Assembly (NCBI GenBank): GCA_944391835.1
Contig: CALXVA010000001.1
Location: 3,897 to 67,896 of the forward strand
Direction: 5' to 3'
Source: an uncultured Clostridia bacterium
GTDB lineage: Bacteria; Bacillota; Clostridia; TANB77; CAG-508
Length of the DNA: 64,000 bases
Shown here in pieces: positions 3,429 through 41,851 of this stretch. The translations under genes and the position numbers were made by a program. A model generated the notes under the pieces. It was given only the letters and a program-made list of their open reading frames with translations, was not told the origin of the DNA and did no database searches. How positions within the stretch are numbered: position 1 is the stretch's first letter; each line of letters starts with the position of its first letter.

Positions 3429-3899
3429 CTATCTTCTTCTACAACAGCAACAGTTTTGCCTTCCTGATGTGGTATTTCTATTTCCTAAAAATAAAACAGG
3501 ATTTGCTTGATTGGTAGTTACTGTGAATTGTGCTCTTGGTAAACTTGAACTGGTTGCCACGTTGTTTGTTGTACTATTATTATTACTATTATTTGTACAA
3601 TTGCAAACACTAGTACAACAATTATTATTTTCTCCTTCTCTATAATTCGAGCACCTATTTATTCTTTCAATTATTTTACATATTATTTTAGTAATAACCG
3701 CCGTAATGTATGAGAGTATAGTATATAGAATAGCCAATATCAAGAAATCTGAACCAAATATTGCATATGTTAAAATTAAGTATATGGCAAAAAATGTTGC
3801 TGCCACCAAAGCAGGACATTTTAATATTTTTAATAAAACTATTGATAATATTATTGTAGCAATTGGTAGTGCTAAAAAAAGTAATAATAATGTATTCAT
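3429..3899 (-). CDS. small polytopic membrane protein with Asn/Cys-rich low-complexity C-terminal tail
   Basis: 156-aa ORF; three predicted TM segments then ...NNNCCTSVCNCTNNSNNNSTTNN...QNCCCC; the tail composition resembles the Cys-rich micropeptides at 26718-26998. Confidence 0.4.
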   Translation of the reverse strand: MNTLLLLFLALPIATIILSIVLLKILKCPALVAATFFAIYLILTYAIFGSDFLILAILYTILSYITAVITKIICKIIERINRCSNYREGENNNCCTSVCNCTNNSNNNSTTNNVATSSSLPRAQFTVTTNQANPVLFLGNRNTTSGRQNCCCCRRR

Positions 3900-12755: not shown

Positions 12756-14405
12756 TTAAGCATTTTCTACTATTTTTACTATTTGCGCTTCTAATTCTTT
12801 TAGTCTTTCCTTTATTCTAATTATATCTGCATCTGCATTATCTTTTTCTAGATATTCTTCTTTAACAATAGTAGACATATCTTCCAATTCTTCTTTCAAA
12901 GTGTTCATTCTTTCTAGCACTTCTAATCTTAGGTATCTTTCTCTTGCTTTATTTTCTGTCTTGCCTATCATTGCAATCTCTTCGCCTATTCCATAAGTTT
13001 CTCCATAGTCTGGAATTGTTATTGGAATATTTGTATTTTCCTCTAACTTTTGTTTTAATACTATTTGTCCTTCTGGTTCTCCATGGACTAAAAAGATGTG
13101 CTTTGGTGGAGTGGTAAATGAATATACAAAATTCATAAGCCATTCTTGGTCAGCATGTCCAGAATATCCTTCTATATATTCAATTCTAGCATTTACAGCT
13201 ATTTCTTCTCCAAATATTTTTACCTTTTTTTCTCCATCTACTAATTTTCTACCAAGTGTTCCTGGTGCTTGATATCCTACAAATAGAATTGTACTATTTG
13301 GCTCCCATAAATGATGTTTTAAATGATGTTTTATTCTTCCAACCTCGCACATGCCACTTGCTGATATTATTATTGAAGATTCTTCGCTTGCATTAAGTGC
13401 TTTTGATTCGTCTGCAGTTCTAGTAAATTTTAGTCCATTAAATTCTAGTGGATTATCTCCATCATTTATTATAGCTTGAGTTTCTTCGTTAAATAAATTC
13501 ATATTTTCTTTAAACACTTCTGTTGCAGAGATTGCAAGTGGGCTATCCACATACACTGGGACACTCATCAGTTTTTGGTATTTTTTAGAAAATTCCTCGT
13601 CATCTTTTTTGTCTTTGATTCTATTTAGTTCATACAAAATTTCTTGAGTTCTACCCACTGCAAATGATGGTATAACTACTGTTCCACCTTTTTCTAAAGT
13701 CTCGTATACTACATTCAAAAAGATTTCTGCTTTGTCATCATTTCTCATATGAAGTCTATTTCCATAAGTAGATTCCATTATCAAATAATCTGCATCACTT
13801 ATCATTGTTGGTGGTGATAAAAGAGGAATATCATTATTTCCTAAGTCCCCTGTAAATACAATTTTTTTAGTTTCTCCATTTTCTGTAATCCACACTTCTA
13901 TAATGCTTGACCCTAGCATGTGTCCTGCATCATTAAATCTTGCTTTTATATTTTCGTCTATATCTACTATCTCGTTATATTGCACTGGTCTGAATATTTC
14001 TAAAGATTTTGCTGCATCTTCTGCCGTATATATTGGTGGAATTGTTTTTTCTCCTTTTCTTTCTCTTTTTTTATTCTTCCACTCTGCTTCCATTTCTTGA
14101 ATATGTCCACTATCAGGAAGCATTATTGAGCATAAGTCACATGTTGCTTTTGTTGCAATAACCTCATTTCTATATCCCTCATTATATAGCTTAGGTATTC
14201 TTCCAGAGTGATCTATATGTGCATGTGTAAGTAACATAAAATCTATTTCATCCACATTAAATAAAAATGGTGCTTCATTTTCAAATTCGTCTGCAGCAGA
14301 CCCTTGGTACATTCCACAATCTACTAAGAATTTTTTTCCTGCTCCCTCTACTAAAAAGTTAGAACCTGTTACCGTTTTTGTAGCTCCTAAAAAAGTTACT
14401 TTCAT
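12756..14405 (-). CDS. MBL-fold beta-CASP ribonuclease (CPSF/TTHA0252-like) with C-terminal coiled-coil extension
   Basis: N-terminus MKVTFLGATKTVTGSNFLVEGAGKKFLVDCGMYQG, HAHIDHSG zinc motif, beta-CASP region; ~70-aa Lys/Glu-rich tail. Confidence 0.7.
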   Translation of the reverse strand: MKVTFLGATKTVTGSNFLVEGAGKKFLVDCGMYQGSAADEFENEAPFLFNVDEIDFMLLTHAHIDHSGRIPKLYNEGYRNEVIATKATCDLCSIMLPDSGHIQEMEAEWKNKKRERKGEKTIPPIYTAEDAAKSLEIFRPVQYNEIVDIDENIKARFNDAGHMLGSSIIEVWITENGETKKIVFTGDLGNNDIPLLSPPTMISDADYLIMESTYGNRLHMRNDDKAEIFLNVVYETLEKGGTVVIPSFAVGRTQEILYELNRIKDKKDDEEFSKKYQKLMSVPVYVDSPLAISATEVFKENMNLFNEETQAIINDGDNPLEFNGLKFTRTADESKALNASEESSIIISASGMCEVGRIKHHLKHHLWEPNSTILFVGYQAPGTLGRKLVDGEKKVKIFGEEIAVNARIEYIEGYSGHADQEWLMNFVYSFTTPPKHIFLVHGEPEGQIVLKQKLEENTNIPITIPDYGETYGIGEEIAMIGKTENKARERYLRLEVLERMNTLKEELEDMSTIVKEEYLEKDNADADIIRIKERLKELEAQIVKIVENA

Positions 14406-23978: not shown

Positions 23979-26483
23979 TTATCTTCTAGAAAATTTCTTT
24001 TCAATATCTGCCTTAGTCATTCTTATAGCAGTTGGTCTTCCGTGTGGACATGTAAATGGATTTGGAAGAGTTAATAACTTTTTCATTAAACTATCTACTT
24101 CTTCTTTAGTTAATGCCATATTTGCTTTAACTGCTGCTTTGCATGCTACTGTAGCAATAAACTTTTCTTCAATTTCTTGTTTTGCTGTTCTAGCTACAGT
24201 ATTTATCTCGTCCAAAGTTTCCAAAAATAGTTCCTTTGTATCTAAGTCTAAGCATACAGTTGGCACTCCACTTAATTTTATGGTATTCTCTCCAAATTCT
24301 TCTAAATCAAATCCTGCTTTTTCAAAAATATCCATGTTATCTTTTGCTATTTGCATATCTTTGTGGCTTAAAGTAATAATGTCTGGAAGTAGCATTAACT
24401 GTGAATCTTTATTTGTATCGCTATAATAATTTGCTTTTATTTTTTCATACATTATTCTTTCATGTGCTGCATGTTGATCTATTATATAAAGCTCACTATT
24501 CATTTCAATAATTATGTACGTAGAAAAAGCTATACCTATAAATTTGTAATCTGGCACATTGTTTTGAGGTAACTTTTCAAATATTGAAATATTTTCTGCT
24601 GTTTTCAAATCTGCTTCCTCAACTTTATATTCTGTATTTTCTTCTTCTACTTTCTTCTCTTCTTTTTTTGGTTTACCAAAAGTTAATGCATACATTTCAT
24701 CAAAATTTTTATAGTCTGGGTCTAGTTTTAGCTCATCTAACTTATGCATTTTTTCATTTATTTCGTTTATATCTATTGTTTTTGTAGCATCTGCAGTTTT
24801 AGATAAGCTTTCATTAGTTTGATTTGTTCCTTCTATACCATTTGCACTATTGCTATTTGTTTCTATAACATTTGTGCTGTCAATATTTAGCATATTATTT
24901 TCTAATGCTGGTTTTGATATTTCTGCGTTTTCTGCTACTAGATTAGAAGTAGTGCTATTACTACTTTCTTTAGAGGTATCTACTGTATTACTGTTATTTT
25001 CATAACTATTTATTCCGTTTTTATTGTTATAAATTTGAGCAATAAAATTTTGTGTCTCATCTACCTCTTTATTTTTTTCTATTTCTTGTTCTTTTTTTCT
25101 TCCAAATAAACCAAACAGCCCTCCTCTTTTATGCTCTTTTTTCTCTTCTTCGTCTTCTTGAAAAAATATATCTAAATTACTTATTCTAGATGTTTCATCT
25201 AACATTTCGGTTTTAGCATCTTCCTGTTTAATTGTTTTAGTTTCTACTTGAGACTCTGTTTTATTTTCAAATTGATTTACTTTATTTATAACTTCTGTAT
25301 CAATTGAATTTTGCTCTTCTACATTTTTTAAATTGCCAAATTGATTTAGACTAGTTTCTAACGTGTTTTTTACACCAAAACTATTACTGCTACTTGTATT
25401 TGTAAAAGAGTTAAATGTATTTGTTCCTAGTTTCCATGCATCTTTTGATTGTATCTGCTTATCTAATTCGATCTTGGTTTTATCTGGTACTAAGTCCTCT
25501 TTTAATAAACTATCCTTTATAGCATGGTAAATTGCCTTAAACACTTGATTTTCATCTTCGAATCTAACCTCTAATTTTGCAGGATGTACATTAACATCTA
25601 CCTTTTTAGGGTTCATTTCCATATTTAACACTAAAAATCCGTATTTTCCTATTGTAAGTAATCCTTTATAGCTCTGCTCTGCCGCACTAGTTAAAATTTT
25701 ATCTTTTATATATCTTTTATTTACGAAGAAAAGCTGGTTAGACCTATTTGAACGTGCTATAGCTGGCTTTCCCACTACACCTGTTATATTTATATCTTCA
25801 TATGTATAATTTACATCTATAACATTTTCAGCAACATCTTTACCATAAATACTATAAATAACAGATTTCATGTCTCCATTTCCAGAAGTTTGTATTATTA
25901 CTTTCCCTGAATTTACAAGTTTTATAGATATTTCTGGATGAACAAGTGCGATTCTTGTAACTACATCTTCTATGTAACCTGCCTCGGTAAAATCTTTCTT
26001 TAAAAATTTATATCTTACAGGAGTATTATAGAATAGGTCTGTTATAGTAATAGTACTTCCTTGAGGGCAACCTGCATCCTCTACATTTATAATCTCTCCA
26101 CCTTTAACTTCTACCCTTTTACCAATTTCATTATTTGCTGTTTTTGAAATTAATTCTACATGACTAATAGCTGCAATACTTGCTAATGCCTCACCTCTAA
26201 ACCCCATAGAAGTTACAGTTTCTAAGTCTGATGCTTCCCTTATTTTACTTGTTGCATGTCTTTCAAATGCCATTTCCATATCGTCTGGTAAAAAGCCTTT
26301 GCCATTATCTGTAATTCGTATATATGTTATTCCACCATTTTTGGTTTCTATATTTATTTTATTTGCTCCTGCATCTATTGAGTTTTCTACTAGCTCCTTT
26401 ACTACTGAAGCAGGTCTTTCTATAACTTCACCCGCTGCTATTTTATTTATTGTTAAGTCATCTAATAAAACTATATTACCCAT
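23979..26483 (-). CDS. mutL: DNA mismatch repair protein MutL (long linker)
   Basis: GHKL ATPase N-terminus LDDLTINKIAAGEVIERPASVVKELVENSIDAGA; C-terminal dimerisation domain with FTCPHGRPT; no mutS adjacent. Confidence 0.9.
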   Translation of the reverse strand: MGNIVLLDDLTINKIAAGEVIERPASVVKELVENSIDAGANKINIETKNGGITYIRITDNGKGFLPDDMEMAFERHATSKIREASDLETVTSMGFRGEALASIAAISHVELISKTANNEIGKRVEVKGGEIINVEDAGCPQGSTITITDLFYNTPVRYKFLKKDFTEAGYIEDVVTRIALVHPEISIKLVNSGKVIIQTSGNGDMKSVIYSIYGKDVAENVIDVNYTYEDINITGVVGKPAIARSNRSNQLFFVNKRYIKDKILTSAAEQSYKGLLTIGKYGFLVLNMEMNPKKVDVNVHPAKLEVRFEDENQVFKAIYHAIKDSLLKEDLVPDKTKIELDKQIQSKDAWKLGTNTFNSFTNTSSSNSFGVKNTLETSLNQFGNLKNVEEQNSIDTEVINKVNQFENKTESQVETKTIKQEDAKTEMLDETSRISNLDIFFQEDEEEKKEHKRGGLFGLFGRKKEQEIEKNKEVDETQNFIAQIYNNKNGINSYENNSNTVDTSKESSNSTTSNLVAENAEISKPALENNMLNIDSTNVIETNSNSANGIEGTNQTNESLSKTADATKTIDINEINEKMHKLDELKLDPDYKNFDEMYALTFGKPKKEEKKVEEENTEYKVEEADLKTAENISIFEKLPQNNVPDYKFIGIAFSTYIIIEMNSELYIIDQHAAHERIMYEKIKANYYSDTNKDSQLMLLPDIITLSHKDMQIAKDNMDIFEKAGFDLEEFGENTIKLSGVPTVCLDLDTKELFLETLDEINTVARTAKQEIEEKFIATVACKAAVKANMALTKEEVDSLMKKLLTLPNPFTCPHGRPTAIRMTKADIEKKFSRR

Positions 26484-26717
26484 TTTATTCCTCCATTTGA
26501 GCTAATTTTAGTTTAACAAAATTTTATTAATAGTCTTCCTTTTTGTTTATTCCATAGAATTATATCATTAAACTACGCTTTTTGTATAGTTTTTTACAAA
26601 ATTTTCACAAAATATATTTCTAATTACTTTGTAACCCTTTTTTTAGTTTTGAATAATATATACCATACGAAAGAACTTCATAAATACATTTAAAAAGTTT
26701 TATAAGGAGGTAAAGAA

Positions 26718-26840
26718 ATGGGAAATTGTTGTTGTAATAATAGCGAACTTTTATGGTTCATAATCCTATTCTTGCTACTCTTCTGTTGTGGAGGTAACAA
26801 CTGTTGTAGTAACTCATGTAACAATTCTTGTGGTTGTTAA
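26718..26840 (+). CDS. 40-aa Cys/Asn-rich micropeptide with central hydrophobic helix (YjcZ-like tiny TM protein candidate)
   Basis: RBS AAGGAGG 8 nt before ATG; MGNCCCNNSELLWFIILFLLLFCCGGNNCCSNSCNNSCGC. Confidence 0.6.
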   Translation: MGNCCCNNSELLWFIILFLLLFCCGGNNCCSNSCNNSCGC

Positions 26841-26878
26841 TTACATTAAAGTTTTAAATTTGAAAGGAGGGGAATTTT

Positions 26879-26998
26879 ATGCCAGAAAATAGAGGATGTG
26901 GATGCGGTTTTGGATTTGGTGATGATTGCTGCTGGATAATAATCGTATTAATATTATTATGTTGTTGCTGTGGTGGTAACAGAGGTGGATGTTGCTAA
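26879..26998 (+). CDS. 39-aa Cys/Gly-rich micropeptide with central hydrophobic helix (paralogue of 26718 gene)
   Basis: RBS AAAGGAGGGG; MPENRGCGCGFGFGDDCCWIIIVLILLCCCCGGNRGGCC; followed by terminator. Confidence 0.6.
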   Translation: MPENRGCGCGFGFGDDCCWIIIVLILLCCCCGGNRGGCC

Positions 26999-27020
26999 TT
27001 AATTAACAATAAGACAAAAT

Positions 27021-27060
27021 AAAATCGTAGAGTGAAGTTTCTCTACGATTTTATTTTGTT
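27021..27060 (+). terminator. rho-independent terminator after the micropeptide pair
   Basis: aaaaTCGTAGAGtgaagtttCTCTACGAttttattttgtt. Confidence 0.7.
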
Positions 27061-27246
27061 TATCTTCTTTTATTATCTTCTTTTCTTCTATTTTCTTTTC
27101 TTCTGTCATGTTCTACTTCTACTTGTTTTTTTCTTCTATCTGTTTTACTTTTCCTTCTGTCTTCAAACATTTTTCCTTCTTTATCTACTATCATAAGTGC
27201 CTCTCCTTTATTTATATTTTTTATTTTATATTTCTACTGTCAAACA

Positions 27247-27321
27247 AAAGTGGCTGGGGTACTGTGATTCGAACACAGGAATGTCGGAGTCAGAGTCCGA
27301 TGCCTTACCGCTTGGCGATAC
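27247..27321 (-). tRNA. tRNA-Gln (anticodon CUG)
   Basis: reverse complement folds as cloverleaf: acceptor TGGGGTA/TACCCCA, anticodon stem TCGGA/TCCGA, loop CTCTGAC, T-arm CTGTG-TTCGAAT-CACAG, discriminator G, encoded CCA. Confidence 0.85.
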
Positions 27322-27327
27322 CCCAAT

Positions 27328-27420: not shown

Positions 27421-28975
<1,555 letters not shown>

Positions 28976-38924: not shown

Positions 38925-41413
38925 TTACATATTCATCATCTTAAATGCTAATCCTGTATTTCTTTTTTTGTTATCATTATTATTTATCATAAAGTCTATT
39001 ATGTTTTTACTGCCTATAATAATTAGTAATTTCTTTGCTCTAGTCATACCAGTATAAAGTAAATTTCTTGTAAGTAGCATTGGTGCAGTTTGTGAAATAG
39101 GCATTATTACTACATCAAATTCACTTCCGTTGTGCTTTATGAACAGTAATAGCGTATGCATGCTCTATTTGTTCTAACTCACTATATTGATACCATACCT
39201 GTTTATCATCATCAAATTTAATTTTAACTTGCTTATTAAAGTCATCTATTTTTTCTATCGTTCCAAATTCACCGTTGAACACGCCACTTCCACTTTCAAA
39301 AAGCGGTTCTTTACGCTCCCAATATATATCGTAATTGTTTTTAACTTGCATTATTCTATCGCCTTCTCTAAAAAGGCTATCTCCAAATTTTTTCTCTTTT
39401 TTAGATTCTGATAGCGGATTTACAGTACCTTGTAATAATTTATTTAATTCTTTTGTTCCTAAATCGCCTTTTTTAGTTGGAGTTATAATTTGTATATTCT
39501 TAAAGAAATCATAATCGCCATAGTTTTTTAGCCTTTCTCCACTTAAAGATAAAACATTATATAAAATTTTGTCTTTTTGAGTTTCATTTACAAAAAAGAA
39601 ATCTTCAAGAAATAAATTATTCTTTATATTTTCACTATCTTCTTGTCTCTTTTTACTTGTGCTTTCTGTATTTTTTAGGTTATTTACAGTAATACTTTTA
39701 TCAATAATTTCTGGTAATGTATTATCTAAATTTTCTTCATTATTACTATTTTCTATCTCTTCTTTTGTTATAAATCCTTTTCCCTCATTTACTCTATGTG
39801 CGTTTACTATAATTTTGCTTTTAGCAGCTTGTCTAAATATTTTGTTTAACCTAATTGTAGTTATCTTTTCAGATTCAATAATATCTTTTAGAACATTCCC
39901 TGGACCAACTGATGGTAGCTGATCAATATCACCTACTAAAACTAGTTTAGTTCCTTTGTATAAAGCTTTACACAAATAATTCATCAAAAACAAATCTACC
40001 ATCGACATTTCATCTACAATTACTATGTCTCCATCAATAGGTGCAACTGAAATATCTGAATTTATTCCCTGTGTTTCATCCGAAATCTTTCCTATTTCTA
40101 GCAATCTATGTAAAGTACTTGCCTCGTTTCCAGTTGCTTCTGTCATCTTCTTAGCAGCTCTTCCCGTTGGAGCACAAAGTACAGGCTTCATTTCACTATG
40201 CTTAAATATATCTATTATAGTTTTTATTATTGTAGTTTTACCAGTACCAGGTCCGTCCAGTTATAACACAAACATTATTATCATTTATTGCACTTATCGC
40301 TTCTATTTGTTTTTCAGATAGTTCTATGCTAGACTTTTTTTCGAATAATTCTAGTTCTTTATCAAATCTGTCTATTTTTTTTATATTTTTATATTTATCT
40401 AATTCAATTAAACGTCTTGCTACATTTGCTTCTGCCTCATAGTATTGATATAAATATACCCATTCCTCTCCATCTCTTTCTTCAAGTACAATGTCTTCTT
40501 TTGCTTTTAAATTGATAATAGAATCCTCTATATCATTCTCGCTAACCCCAAGTAACTTTTTAACAAATTCAACTAACCCTTCATATCTAGTACAACAATG
40601 ACCATTATATGTCATAAGAATTAAAGCATGTTTAATCCCACTTCTAATTCTTTTTTCATTATTATATTCGAACCCTAAATTAAGAGCCATCTTATCAATT
40701 TGCTCAAAATTAACTTTATTTACCAAATCAACTAAAATATATGGATTACTTTCTATCTCTTCCATTGCATTTACTCCAAGTGCCTTATAAATCTTCTCTG
40801 CATTTTGTGGTCCTATTCCAAACTTGTCTAAAAAACCGACAAGTTGCCAAACTTCCCAGTTTTCTATAAATGTATTTGCTATTTCTATTGCTCTATCTTT
40901 TGTTATCCCCTTAATTTGTGCTAACTTAGCTGGCTCAAACTTAAACACATTTAAAGTATCCTCTCCAAAAGTTTCAACAATATTTCTTGCAGTTGCAGGT
41001 CCAATACCTTTAATTCCACAATTTGCTAGGTAACGTTCTAGCGCCTTTGTAGTTTGAGGCATCATTTTCTCAAAAGTATCTACCTTAAATTGTAGACCAT
41101 ACTCTTGGTGTTCTACAAATTTTCCCATAGCTTTAAGAGTATCTCCAATATTTACAAATGGTAGATACCCTACTATAGTCATTTCTTCGTCCAGATCATC
41201 TATTTCATTAAACTCTTCAGTAATTCCAATTTGATCAGCCATTTCTTTTTTATTTTTTTTAATTATATCTTTATCTAATTTTAGAACAGCTATACAGTAG
41301 CTATTCAAATCATTTTTGTAAATTATTTCAATAACTTCACCTTGTAATTCCAATGTGTATACCTTCTTTTTTGTCATGTTTGGGGACAGGCTCTTTTGCG
41401 ACAAGCTTGTCAT
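38925..41413 (-). pseudogene. recD2: RecD2-like ATP-dependent DNA helicase interrupted by two +1 frameshifts (three ORF pieces)
   Basis: pieces 40238-41413 (HhH N-domain, ends VITGRTWYW*), 39121-40191 (KPVLCAPTGRAAKKM ... AYAITVHKAQRK*) and 38925-39161 (GSEFDVVIMP ... YTGMTRAKK); the shifted frame restores GPGTGKTT and HKAQGSEFD; both lesions are an extra C before GGA. Confidence 0.75.
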
Positions 41414-41494: not shown

Positions 41495-41851
41495 TTAATT
41501 GGCCTCTTTTATGTTATCAATTACTTCCTTGCATTCTTTCCAATTTACAACTTTTATCTCATCATAGTCTTTACTAAGTTTGTTTAAAATTTTCATAGTA
41601 TCATCAGTAGAATCCAAGTCTGTTACAATCACATCTTTCACACAATCTTCTTTGCCATACATTATCCTAAAGAGTATTGTACGCAAAAATCCTTCTATTT
41701 TATTTTCCTGATTTTTAGCAGCTATTATTATATAGATACCATCTGATTTTAAATTTGTATATGTACAAATATATATAATATTTTTAATAATTTCGAAAAG
41801 GCCATAAAGTGCAAGTGTCCATAATATCCCATTTAATATAAAATCAAGCAT
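41495..41851 (-). CDS. 118-aa ORF resembling the N-terminal fragment of a family-2 glycosyltransferase (possible remnant)
   Basis: TM helix then YIIIAAKNQENKIEGFL ... VIVTDLDSTDDTMKIL, like a GT2 Rossmann N-terminus; REP-1 elements on both sides. Confidence 0.3.
   Translation of the reverse strand: MLDFILNGILWTLALYGLFEIIKNIIYICTYTNLKSDGIYIIIAAKNQENKIEGFLRTILFRIMYGKEDCVKDVIVTDLDSTDDTMKILNKLSKDYDEIKVVNWKECKEVIDNIKEAN

Follow-up and report, generated by a model that had tools for sequence, protein, structure and literature searches.

The window analysed here (64,000 nucleotides of contig CALXVA010000001.1, from an uncultured Clostridia bacterium) carries two adjacent short open reading frames (ORFs), W1 and W2, which encode Cys-rich peptides of 40 and 39 amino acids with a single hydrophobic helix. 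Both are real protein-coding genes, chance ORFs being excluded, and together they make up an operon that has a promoter of its own, a strong ribosome-binding site for each gene and a terminator. By matrix score, the promoter matches mapped clostridial sigma-K promoters as well as these match one another, and it does not match sigma-E promoters. We infer, with about an even chance of being right, that W1 and W2 are late-sporulation (mother-cell) membrane micropeptides that act in the spore envelope.

Homologous loci, at least 120 in number, were collected by scanning one genome per species with a degenerate DNA pattern (MPENR...CCCG). Among the matches listed, the carriers were nearly all metagenome-assembled genomes (MAGs) of uncultured gut Clostridia from humans, rabbits and ruminants, including circular genomes of 1.57 and 1.8 Mb, and the MPENR peptide was encoded in 111 of 111 sources, the window included, as 74 distinct sequences. 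W2 homologues were present in at least 110 loci besides the window, in species-level genomes. A W1-like gene was found 31–85 nucleotides (nt) upstream, on the same strand, in 41 of 110 W2 loci among the matches listed (42 of 111 with the window); where the flank was sufficient, W2 stood alone in 59 loci and was paired with W1 in 30–31. Codon differences between homologues were 8570 synonymous versus 2558 non-synonymous for W2, and 61 versus 21 for W1. As synonymous differences outnumber non-synonymous ones about 3:1, both frames are under purifying selection. The W1 core, [ED][IL]LWFIILFLLLFC, was nearly invariant in 38 distinct homologues while the tails varied, and the W2 family peptides read MPENRGCGCGFGFGDDCCWIII...CCCCGGNRGGCC. 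Conservation in relatives, one of the checks proposed by an earlier first-pass annotation of this DNA, was therefore found, and the tandem transmembrane micropeptide genes that it described are genuine, given the further W2 loci, the synonymous excess and the predicted helix.

The mutL synteny was kept in the main-lineage loci examined (L001, L122–L124). A word-indexed search with W1 returned one match only, the metagenome-contig protein P0001, the query being short and of low complexity; on that contig mutL on the minus strand is followed by a W1-like gene and then by an MPENR peptide, the same arrangement as in the window. A profile of two W2 sequences retrieved 67 proteins in the word-indexed search, none of them with a name or a Pfam domain. 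Cluster look-ups gave no names for close W1 or W2 homologues, and the plasmid collection contained no match to the peptides.

The evidence for a sporulation-type promoter comes from the same loci. A GTAAC-N16-(C/A)ATAnTATA block was conserved upstream of the operon in about 90 loci, GTAAC lying at a fixed distance in 89–93 of 111. The upstream consensus was tTGTAACactTTTTT...GAATAaTATATA.CATAc.AAagAa for the pair type and GTAACAcaTTTT...cATAtTATATAtcATACAAAggAa for the single type, and in single-gene loci the homologous -10 box was CATATTATA. The strict form of the motif was present 97 times in the roughly 1 Mb of loci, always before the peptide operon; since it was never found elsewhere, it was of no use for defining a regulon, for which a matrix scan served instead. 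Matrices were made from 25 sigma-K promoters of Clostridium difficile with mapped start sites (Table S7, PMC3789822) and from 47 sigma-E promoters. Mother-cell promoters of C. difficile have a common CATATTAT-type -10 and differ in the -35 element, which is AC in sigma-K promoters versus ATA in sigma-E promoters (PMC3789822). GTAACA is present in the sigma-K promoters of cotA, cotE, CD1067, CD1891, CD3613 and feoA, and several sigma-K promoters have AATA-type -10 variants (Table S7, PMC3789822).

With the sigma-K matrix the window promoter (GTAAC and AATAATATA) scored 15.25 bits, ranking fourth among 127,938 window positions; with the sigma-E matrix it scored 1.19 bits. Across 106 loci the median best upstream score was 16.4 bits for sigma-K versus 8.0 bits for sigma-E, and 93% of these loci exceeded the 99th percentile of control segments (13.0 bits, sigma-K matrix). 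The sigma-K training promoters themselves had a median of 15.4 bits on their own matrix. A sigma-E reading was rejected on the low scores both in the window and across loci. The first-pass annotation had pointed to a possible sporulation-sigma-like -10 at CATACGAA (26664–26671). A sporulation-type promoter is indeed present; that block, however, is not its -10, its scores being negative with both matrices (sigma-K, -7.3; sigma-E, -4.0). The start site in C. difficile lies 13–14 nt after the first -10 base, and the operon would therefore start at about 26665, at CATAC/CATACGAA.

Promoters of other types were weighed against the same data. The -35 sequences TGTAAC and GAAAC are those of Bacillus extracytoplasmic function (ECF) sigma factors, and 'AAC' -35 boxes are typical of this class. 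GTAAC might thus be read by an ECF-type sigma factor, or by sigma-A, for which TTGTAA-17-AATAAT gives 9 of 12 matches, and W1 and W2 would then be vegetative or stress-induced envelope peptides, unrelated to spores, that influence a membrane protein or the properties of the membrane itself. The housekeeping flanks and the lack of a sporulation gene in the window suit this explanation, as do the apparently small host genomes, in which sporulation might therefore have been lost. Nevertheless, it is GTAAC that is conserved and not the TTG of sigma-A, a sigma-A scan was no richer than shuffled sequence (7 versus 5.4 sites), there is no CGT-type ECF -10, and distant relatives keep AC-N16-CATA rather than AAC. 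The -10 is a CATATTAT box, which is canonical for mother-cell sigma factors (PMC3789822). We consider a vegetative or stress role unlikely.

The gene layout (Table 1) agrees exactly with the two ORFs of 40 and 39 amino acids previously described, and the strong ribosome-binding sites and single common terminator reported with them were also seen. W1 (MGNCCCNNSELLWFIILFLLLFCCGGNNCCSNSCNNSCGC) has 10 Cys and 8 Asn, and W2 (MPENRGCGCGFGFGDDCCWIIIVLILLCCCCGGNRGGCC) has 10 Cys and 9 Gly. The two genes are separated by 38 nt without a terminator between them. The terminator after W2 consists of a 21-bp hairpin followed by a T-run (-26.6 kcal/mol; z = -8.8 versus shuffles). The operon runs opposite to the flanking genes, all of which are on the minus strand. 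An Rfam scan of the whole window detected tRNA only, with no known leader or riboswitch in the 5' untranslated region of the operon.

Table 1. Coordinates of the W1/W2 operon, its neighbours and two further sigma-K-type promoters in the window.
Feature	Position	Strand	Basis or remark
-35 element GTAAC, sigma-K type (AC at 26634-26635)	26631-26635	+	6.15 bits; fixed distance
-10 element AATAATATA (CATAnnnTA variant), spaced 16 nt from AC	26652-26660	+	9.1 bits, sigma-K matrix
Conserved block CATACGAAAGAAC at predicted transcription start (~26665)	26664-26676	+	consensus across loci
W1 ribosome-binding site AAGGAGG, 7 nt before ATG	26704-26710	+	read from sequence
W1 gene, 40-aa Cys/Asn-rich single-helix peptide, core ELLWFIILFLLLFC	26718-26840	+	ORF list
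W2 ribosome-binding site AAGGAGGGG (contains AAGGAGG)	26864-26872	+	read from sequence
W2 gene, 39-aa Cys/Gly-rich single-helix peptide, MPENR family	26879-26998	+	ORF list
Bidirectional intrinsic terminator, common to the W1/W2 operon and the convergent small basic ORF	27012-27061		terminator scan, both strands
mutL	23979-26483	-	neighbour of W1/W2 operon
44-aa basic ORF	27060-27194	-	neighbour of W1/W2 operon
tRNA-Gln	27251-27325	-	neighbour of W1/W2 operon
Enolase	27421-28722	-	neighbour of W1/W2 operon
Promoter GTAAC (3973-3969)-N17-CATAAGATA (3951-3943)	upstream of 3429-3899	-	15.3 bits, sigma-K matrix
Promoter TTAAC (41954-41950)-N17-CATATTATA (41932-41924)	upstream of 41495-41851	-	17.1 bits, best in the window

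The small ORF convergent to the operon encodes a very basic peptide, MIVDKEGKMFEDRRK...DRRK...RRKEDNKRR. Its N-terminus MIVDxxGxxFEDRRK and its (D/E)RRK repeats were kept in at least 18 related genomes (tblastn), in the same convergent position in both genomes checked (L030, L042). A sigma-A-like TTGACA-16-AAAAAT lies near it (27243–27216), and no family match was found in NCBIfam, Pfam or PHROGs.

Each of the two peptides consists of one short hydrophobic helix with an acidic residue and a Trp at its N-terminal edge and a Cys cluster followed by GGN(R/N) at its C-terminal edge; the tails are rich in Cys, Gly and Asn. AlphaFold2 predicted for W2 a single helix at residues 16–30 with disordered ends, at a low mean confidence (pLDDT 59.7). 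When the W1 and W2 families were compared with hhalign, they aligned with a probability of 96.6% (E = 6e-10), with the acidic residue, the Trp, the helix and the Cys/Gly segment in register. W1 and W2 are paralogues by this alignment. Of the further paralogues that the first-pass annotation proposed to look for, none was detected in the rest of the 64-kb window. A lipoprotein reading was rejected, as no lipobox precedes the Cys runs and residue -1 is Leu or Phe.

Neither peptide had a match in Pfam, NCBIfam or the PDB. W2 weakly matched phrog_16490, a phage family of 286 positions and unknown function (E 9.5e-4, 19.9 bits), residues 4–37 aligning to positions 21–53, and W1 had no PHROGs match. 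The small size of these single hydrophobic helices, their occurrence in arrays of one to three paralogues, the late mother-cell-type promoter and the strong ribosome-binding sites would also be expected of holin- or toxin-like peptides that permeabilise the membrane at the end of sporulation and aid mother-cell lysis and spore release. PHROGs returned no holin or lysis family, only that weak W2 match, and no antisense RNA or antitoxin partner was evident. The tails are Cys/Gly-rich and not charged as is usual in type I toxins and holins, and strict synteny with purifying selection in more than 100 species better suits a housekeeping developmental role. A lytic function therefore seems quite unlikely to us.

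More remote members were recovered in an exhaustive profile search of 1.84 billion representatives, which gave 101 matches at E<=1e-3. The distant matches, from Ruminiclostridium and Lachnospiraceae MAGs among others, comprise single peptides such as MADERGGFGFGFGADWIWIIIIIIIIICF... and two-helix fusions starting MSDLAAT.... The fusions are P0136 (L126, 8001–8213, from a Lachnospiraceae MAG), P0067, P0135, P0148 and P0149. The NCBI name of P0136, 'chorion class high-cysteine HCB protein 13', belongs to insect eggshells and has clearly been misapplied; it is the only informative public name found for a relative, and it is misleading. A metagenome scan for WIWIIIII revealed two- or three-gene arrays in bioreactor communities, in which W1-like members with the helix retained (…AILFFIILFLLLFFD…) precede W2-like ones (…GFGTNWIWIIIIILVIILLFP…); Cys is absent from some members. 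Arrays of three genes were seen in L143, L196, L206, L212, L214 and L235, some of them from bioreactor metagenomes, and consist of two W1-like genes (…CAILFFIILFLLLFFDNR… and …CALLFFIILFLLLFTNNR…) and then a W2-like gene (…GFGTNWIWIIIIILVIILLFP…EGYYKE); the paired architecture is therefore older than the gut lineage. W1 and W2 thus belong to a wider set of tiny transmembrane peptides of other Clostridia, whose genes occur in arrays of one to three. Distant relatives, too, are stand-alone genes, in most cases on the strand opposite to that of the flanking genes.

Another tiny transmembrane peptide, MYYPGYPYYGNDNGSNWSWIWIIIIIIFFIFFFNYGGNNNNCCCNKNKCN, with a Tyr/Pro-rich head and an Asn/Cys-rich tail, was nearly unchanged in many contigs (L133, L183, L197–L203, L219, L227 and L242), at least some of which are from human gut metagenomes. 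No sigma-K-type box was found for it by simple pattern.

The promoters of the distant relatives were scored with the sigma-K matrix. L125 has AC-N16-CATATTATG (12.0 bits), L127 has GTAACA-N-AATAGTATG (12.8 bits), and L128 carries GTAACAC...GAATATTATA. We regard as possible, though less likely than not, a wider picture in which W1 and W2 are the first known members of a large superfamily across the class Clostridia that is under sigma-K control, its paralogues hetero-oligomerise via their nearly invariant helices, and the thiol-rich tails, cross-linked by disulfides or metal into a layer, tie the outer forespore membrane to the coat.

The Cys content invites a different role. About 25% of the residues are Cys, arranged in CC, CCCC and CxC runs beside the helix, and the helix-flanking Cys are the best-conserved polar positions. 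These clusters might bind Zn, Cu, Fe or an Fe-S cluster at the membrane, so that the peptides, instead of having a structural role, would load or buffer metals or redox equivalents, whether late in sporulation or during vegetative life; the sigma-K targets of C. difficile do include feoA and the cation efflux protein CD0902. Such metal handling is rather improbable, as no metallothionein or metal-binding family of Pfam or NCBIfam was matched, species differ widely in how many Cys the tails contain and how these are spaced, Cys is scarce or absent in distant relatives, and no metal transporter or chaperone gene was linked to the peptide genes in the neighbourhoods examined.

The same neighbourhoods bear on a possible role as precursors of ribosomally synthesised and post-translationally modified peptides (RiPPs), of the sactipeptide, ranthipeptide or SCIFF ('six cysteines in forty-five residues') type, whose Cys would be cross-linked by a maturase encoded elsewhere. 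W1 and W2 do recall SCIFF peptides in size and Cys content: both are Cys-rich, SCIFF peptides having about 45 amino acids, and both are widespread in Clostridia. However, SCIFF peptides have no hydrophobic helix and are always encoded beside a radical-SAM maturase, and W1 and W2 differ on both counts. No SCIFF or other RiPP precursor model of NCBIfam was matched. In the neighbourhoods examined, of the main lineage and of distant relatives, no enzyme gene recurs beside the peptide genes; there was no radical-SAM enzyme, protease or exporter gene, and mutL, tRNA, enolase, PEPCK, GroEL and similar genes were found instead. The best-conserved part of the peptides is the hydrophobic helix, which is atypical of RiPP cores, and we hold a RiPP origin to be very improbable.

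The first-pass annotation had likened the peptides to the Bacillus YjcZ family. YjcZ-type architecture (30–60 amino acids, a Gly-rich N-terminus and one transmembrane helix) is that of W1 and W2, and in YjcZ as in W1/W2 the helix is very hydrophobic, the tail is short and Gly-rich, and several paralogues are often present. The yjcZ gene of Bacillus subtilis belongs to the sigma-K regulon (PMC517825), and W1/W2 have a sigma-K-type promoter as judged by sequence. Family membership was examined with hidden Markov models and profile comparisons. First, TIGR01732 and PF09680 (family cut-offs of 21.35 and 21 bits) gave no match for W1, W2 or 20 close and distant relatives, even at E<=10. A YjcZ-like control sequence scored 47.5 bits with PF09680 and 43.1 bits with TIGR01732; it retrieved 346 proteins, and the 120 of these that were listed all carry PF09680, most of the named ones being called 'YjcZ family sporulation protein'. 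Second, hhalign against 24 real YjcZ proteins gave a probability of 6.5% over 11 columns for the W1 family and of 10.4% over 4 columns for the W2 family, in both cases within part of the helix. Membership of the YjcZ family was therefore rejected, and the likeness stands for the design (tiny size, Gly-rich N-terminus, one helix) and not for descent. YjcZ proteins have a GFALIVVLFILLIIVG core, Tyr/Gly tails and almost no Cys and belong to Bacillaceae, whereas in the clostridial peptides W1 and W2 the core is W-III or LWFIILFLLLF and Cys makes up about 25% of the residues. In conclusion, tiny transmembrane peptides under sigma-K were already known in YjcZ, and by these comparisons the Cys-rich clostridial W1/W2 superfamily is not homologous to them.

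Other spore components offer partial parallels. The promoter of C. difficile CdeC (= CD1067), AGTAACA-N-CATAGTAT, has the same architecture as that of W1/W2. CdeC and CdeM share with W1/W2 a high Cys content and a predicted late mother-cell origin; they differ in being soluble proteins of about 19–45 kDa in the exosporium or coat, whereas W1 and W2 are 40-amino-acid transmembrane peptides. No sequence similarity between them was found, and their roles may be likened on established knowledge. SpoVM and CmpA are mother-cell micropeptides of Bacillus, of 26–37 amino acids, that organise coat assembly at the outer forespore membrane. They resemble W1 and W2 as micropeptides and, if our reading is right, in mother-cell origin and outer forespore membrane site. 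There is no sequence relation, and SpoVM has an amphipathic surface helix and is under sigma-E, whereas W1/W2 have a Cys-rich transmembrane helix and a sigma-K-type promoter.

Three of the four best sigma-K-matrix sites in the window are correctly placed upstream of a gene, one of them being the peptide operon; the fourth, antisense inside rsmD, is probably due to chance. The gene at 3429–3899 (minus strand) encodes a DUF2651 membrane protein (PF10852, 25.9 bits) with an Asn/Cys-rich tail ending CCCCRRR. Its N/C-rich tail had been compared earlier with W1 and W2; the composition is indeed alike, but the tail is not homologous to the peptides (hhalign probability 0.5%). The gene at 41495–41851 (minus strand) encodes a protein of 118 amino acids that has a membrane helix at its N-terminus and part of a glycosyltransferase-2-like domain. 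These sites suggest, indirectly, that a sigma-K-type regulon may be working in this organism. An indirect statement in the literature places some spo0A-positive MAGs in the order TANB77 (PMC11536998), to which the lineage studied here possibly belongs; two genome papers on TANB77 make no mention of spores.

The rest of the window is housekeeping in content (FtsK, RsmD, DivIVA, SepF, MiaA, MutL, glycolysis genes and a ribosomal protein cluster). The RecD2 helicase appears to be split over two adjacent ORFs, 39121–40191 and 40238–41413 (minus strand), one matching the N-terminal half of the model and the other the C-terminal half; a frameshift, a pseudogene or a truly split gene could account for this. 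A 549-amino-acid beta-CASP/MBL ribonuclease is encoded at 12756–14405 (minus strand). It scored 465 bits with the 'type VII CRISPR-associated Cas14' model, whose cut-off is 800, and is probably an RNase J/aCPSF-like housekeeping nuclease, not a Cas protein.

In the spore-envelope reading that we favour, sigma-K RNA polymerase would transcribe both genes into a single mRNA of about 400 nt (about 26665 to 27061) in the mother cell at a late stage of sporulation, and the two peptides would insert into the mother-cell and outer forespore membrane. As acidic residues precede the helix and Arg follows it, the positive-inside rule would give an N-out, C-in orientation and would therefore place the CCCCGGNRGGCC tail on the coat-assembly face. 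The nearly invariant W1 helix would pack against W2 or against itself, and the thiol-rich tails may be cross-linked, through disulfides or metal, to one another or to Cys-rich coat or exosporium proteins, which would give the peptides a role as membrane anchors or as structural parts of the spore envelope. A parallel may be drawn with the sigma-K-controlled tiny transmembrane YjcZ of Bacillus and with the Cys-rich sigma-K-dependent surface proteins of clostridia.

Several observations weigh against this reading. Some distant relatives have no Cys at all (L128), and the core function of the superfamily as a whole therefore cannot lie in its thiols. No sporulation gene (spo0A, sigE/K/F/G, spoIVA etc.) was found in the 64-kb window, in which about 40 proteins were scanned. 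The hosts have not been cultured, and small genomes are seen in at least two related MAGs (the circular ones of 1.57 and 1.8 Mb), so that the hosts may or may not sporulate. The -10 box of the window starts with A where C is the usual base, the weak sigma-A match exists beside the sigma-K one, and the promoter of the distant relative L126 is weak by matrix (7.0 bits), although AC-N16-CATAAGATA can be read by eye. The 25 sigma-K training promoters were aligned by us, the text copy having lost the colours that mark the boxes. The sigma-K assignment of the promoter is made by sequence matching, and the localisation, cross-linking and metal binding of the peptides are putative.

Housekeeping genes apart, few features of the more than 100 uncultured gut Clostridia species are as well conserved as the W1/W2 family. 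As judged from the searches described here, it is an overlooked, Cys-rich, two-paralogue clostridial superfamily that is absent from Pfam, NCBIfam and the PDB. Genes for 40 amino acids are routinely missed in annotation, and this family is such a blind spot. Its nearly invariant helix LWFIILFLLLF offers a simple system for sequence-specific helix-helix recognition. If the spore-envelope reading is true, this Cys-rich transmembrane class would join the short list of spore-morphogenesis micropeptides (SpoVM, CmpA, YjcZ). The family also hints that an uncultured gut lineage with apparently small genomes sporulates; in the wider superfamily picture, its universal presence there with an intact sigma-K-type promoter would mean that endospores are still formed, which bears on the transmission and culturing of these organisms. 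If the sigma-K assignment is right, the locus would be a compact marker of sporulation in bacteria that have never been cultured, relevant to host-to-host transmission and to isolation by ethanol or heat selection and germinants.

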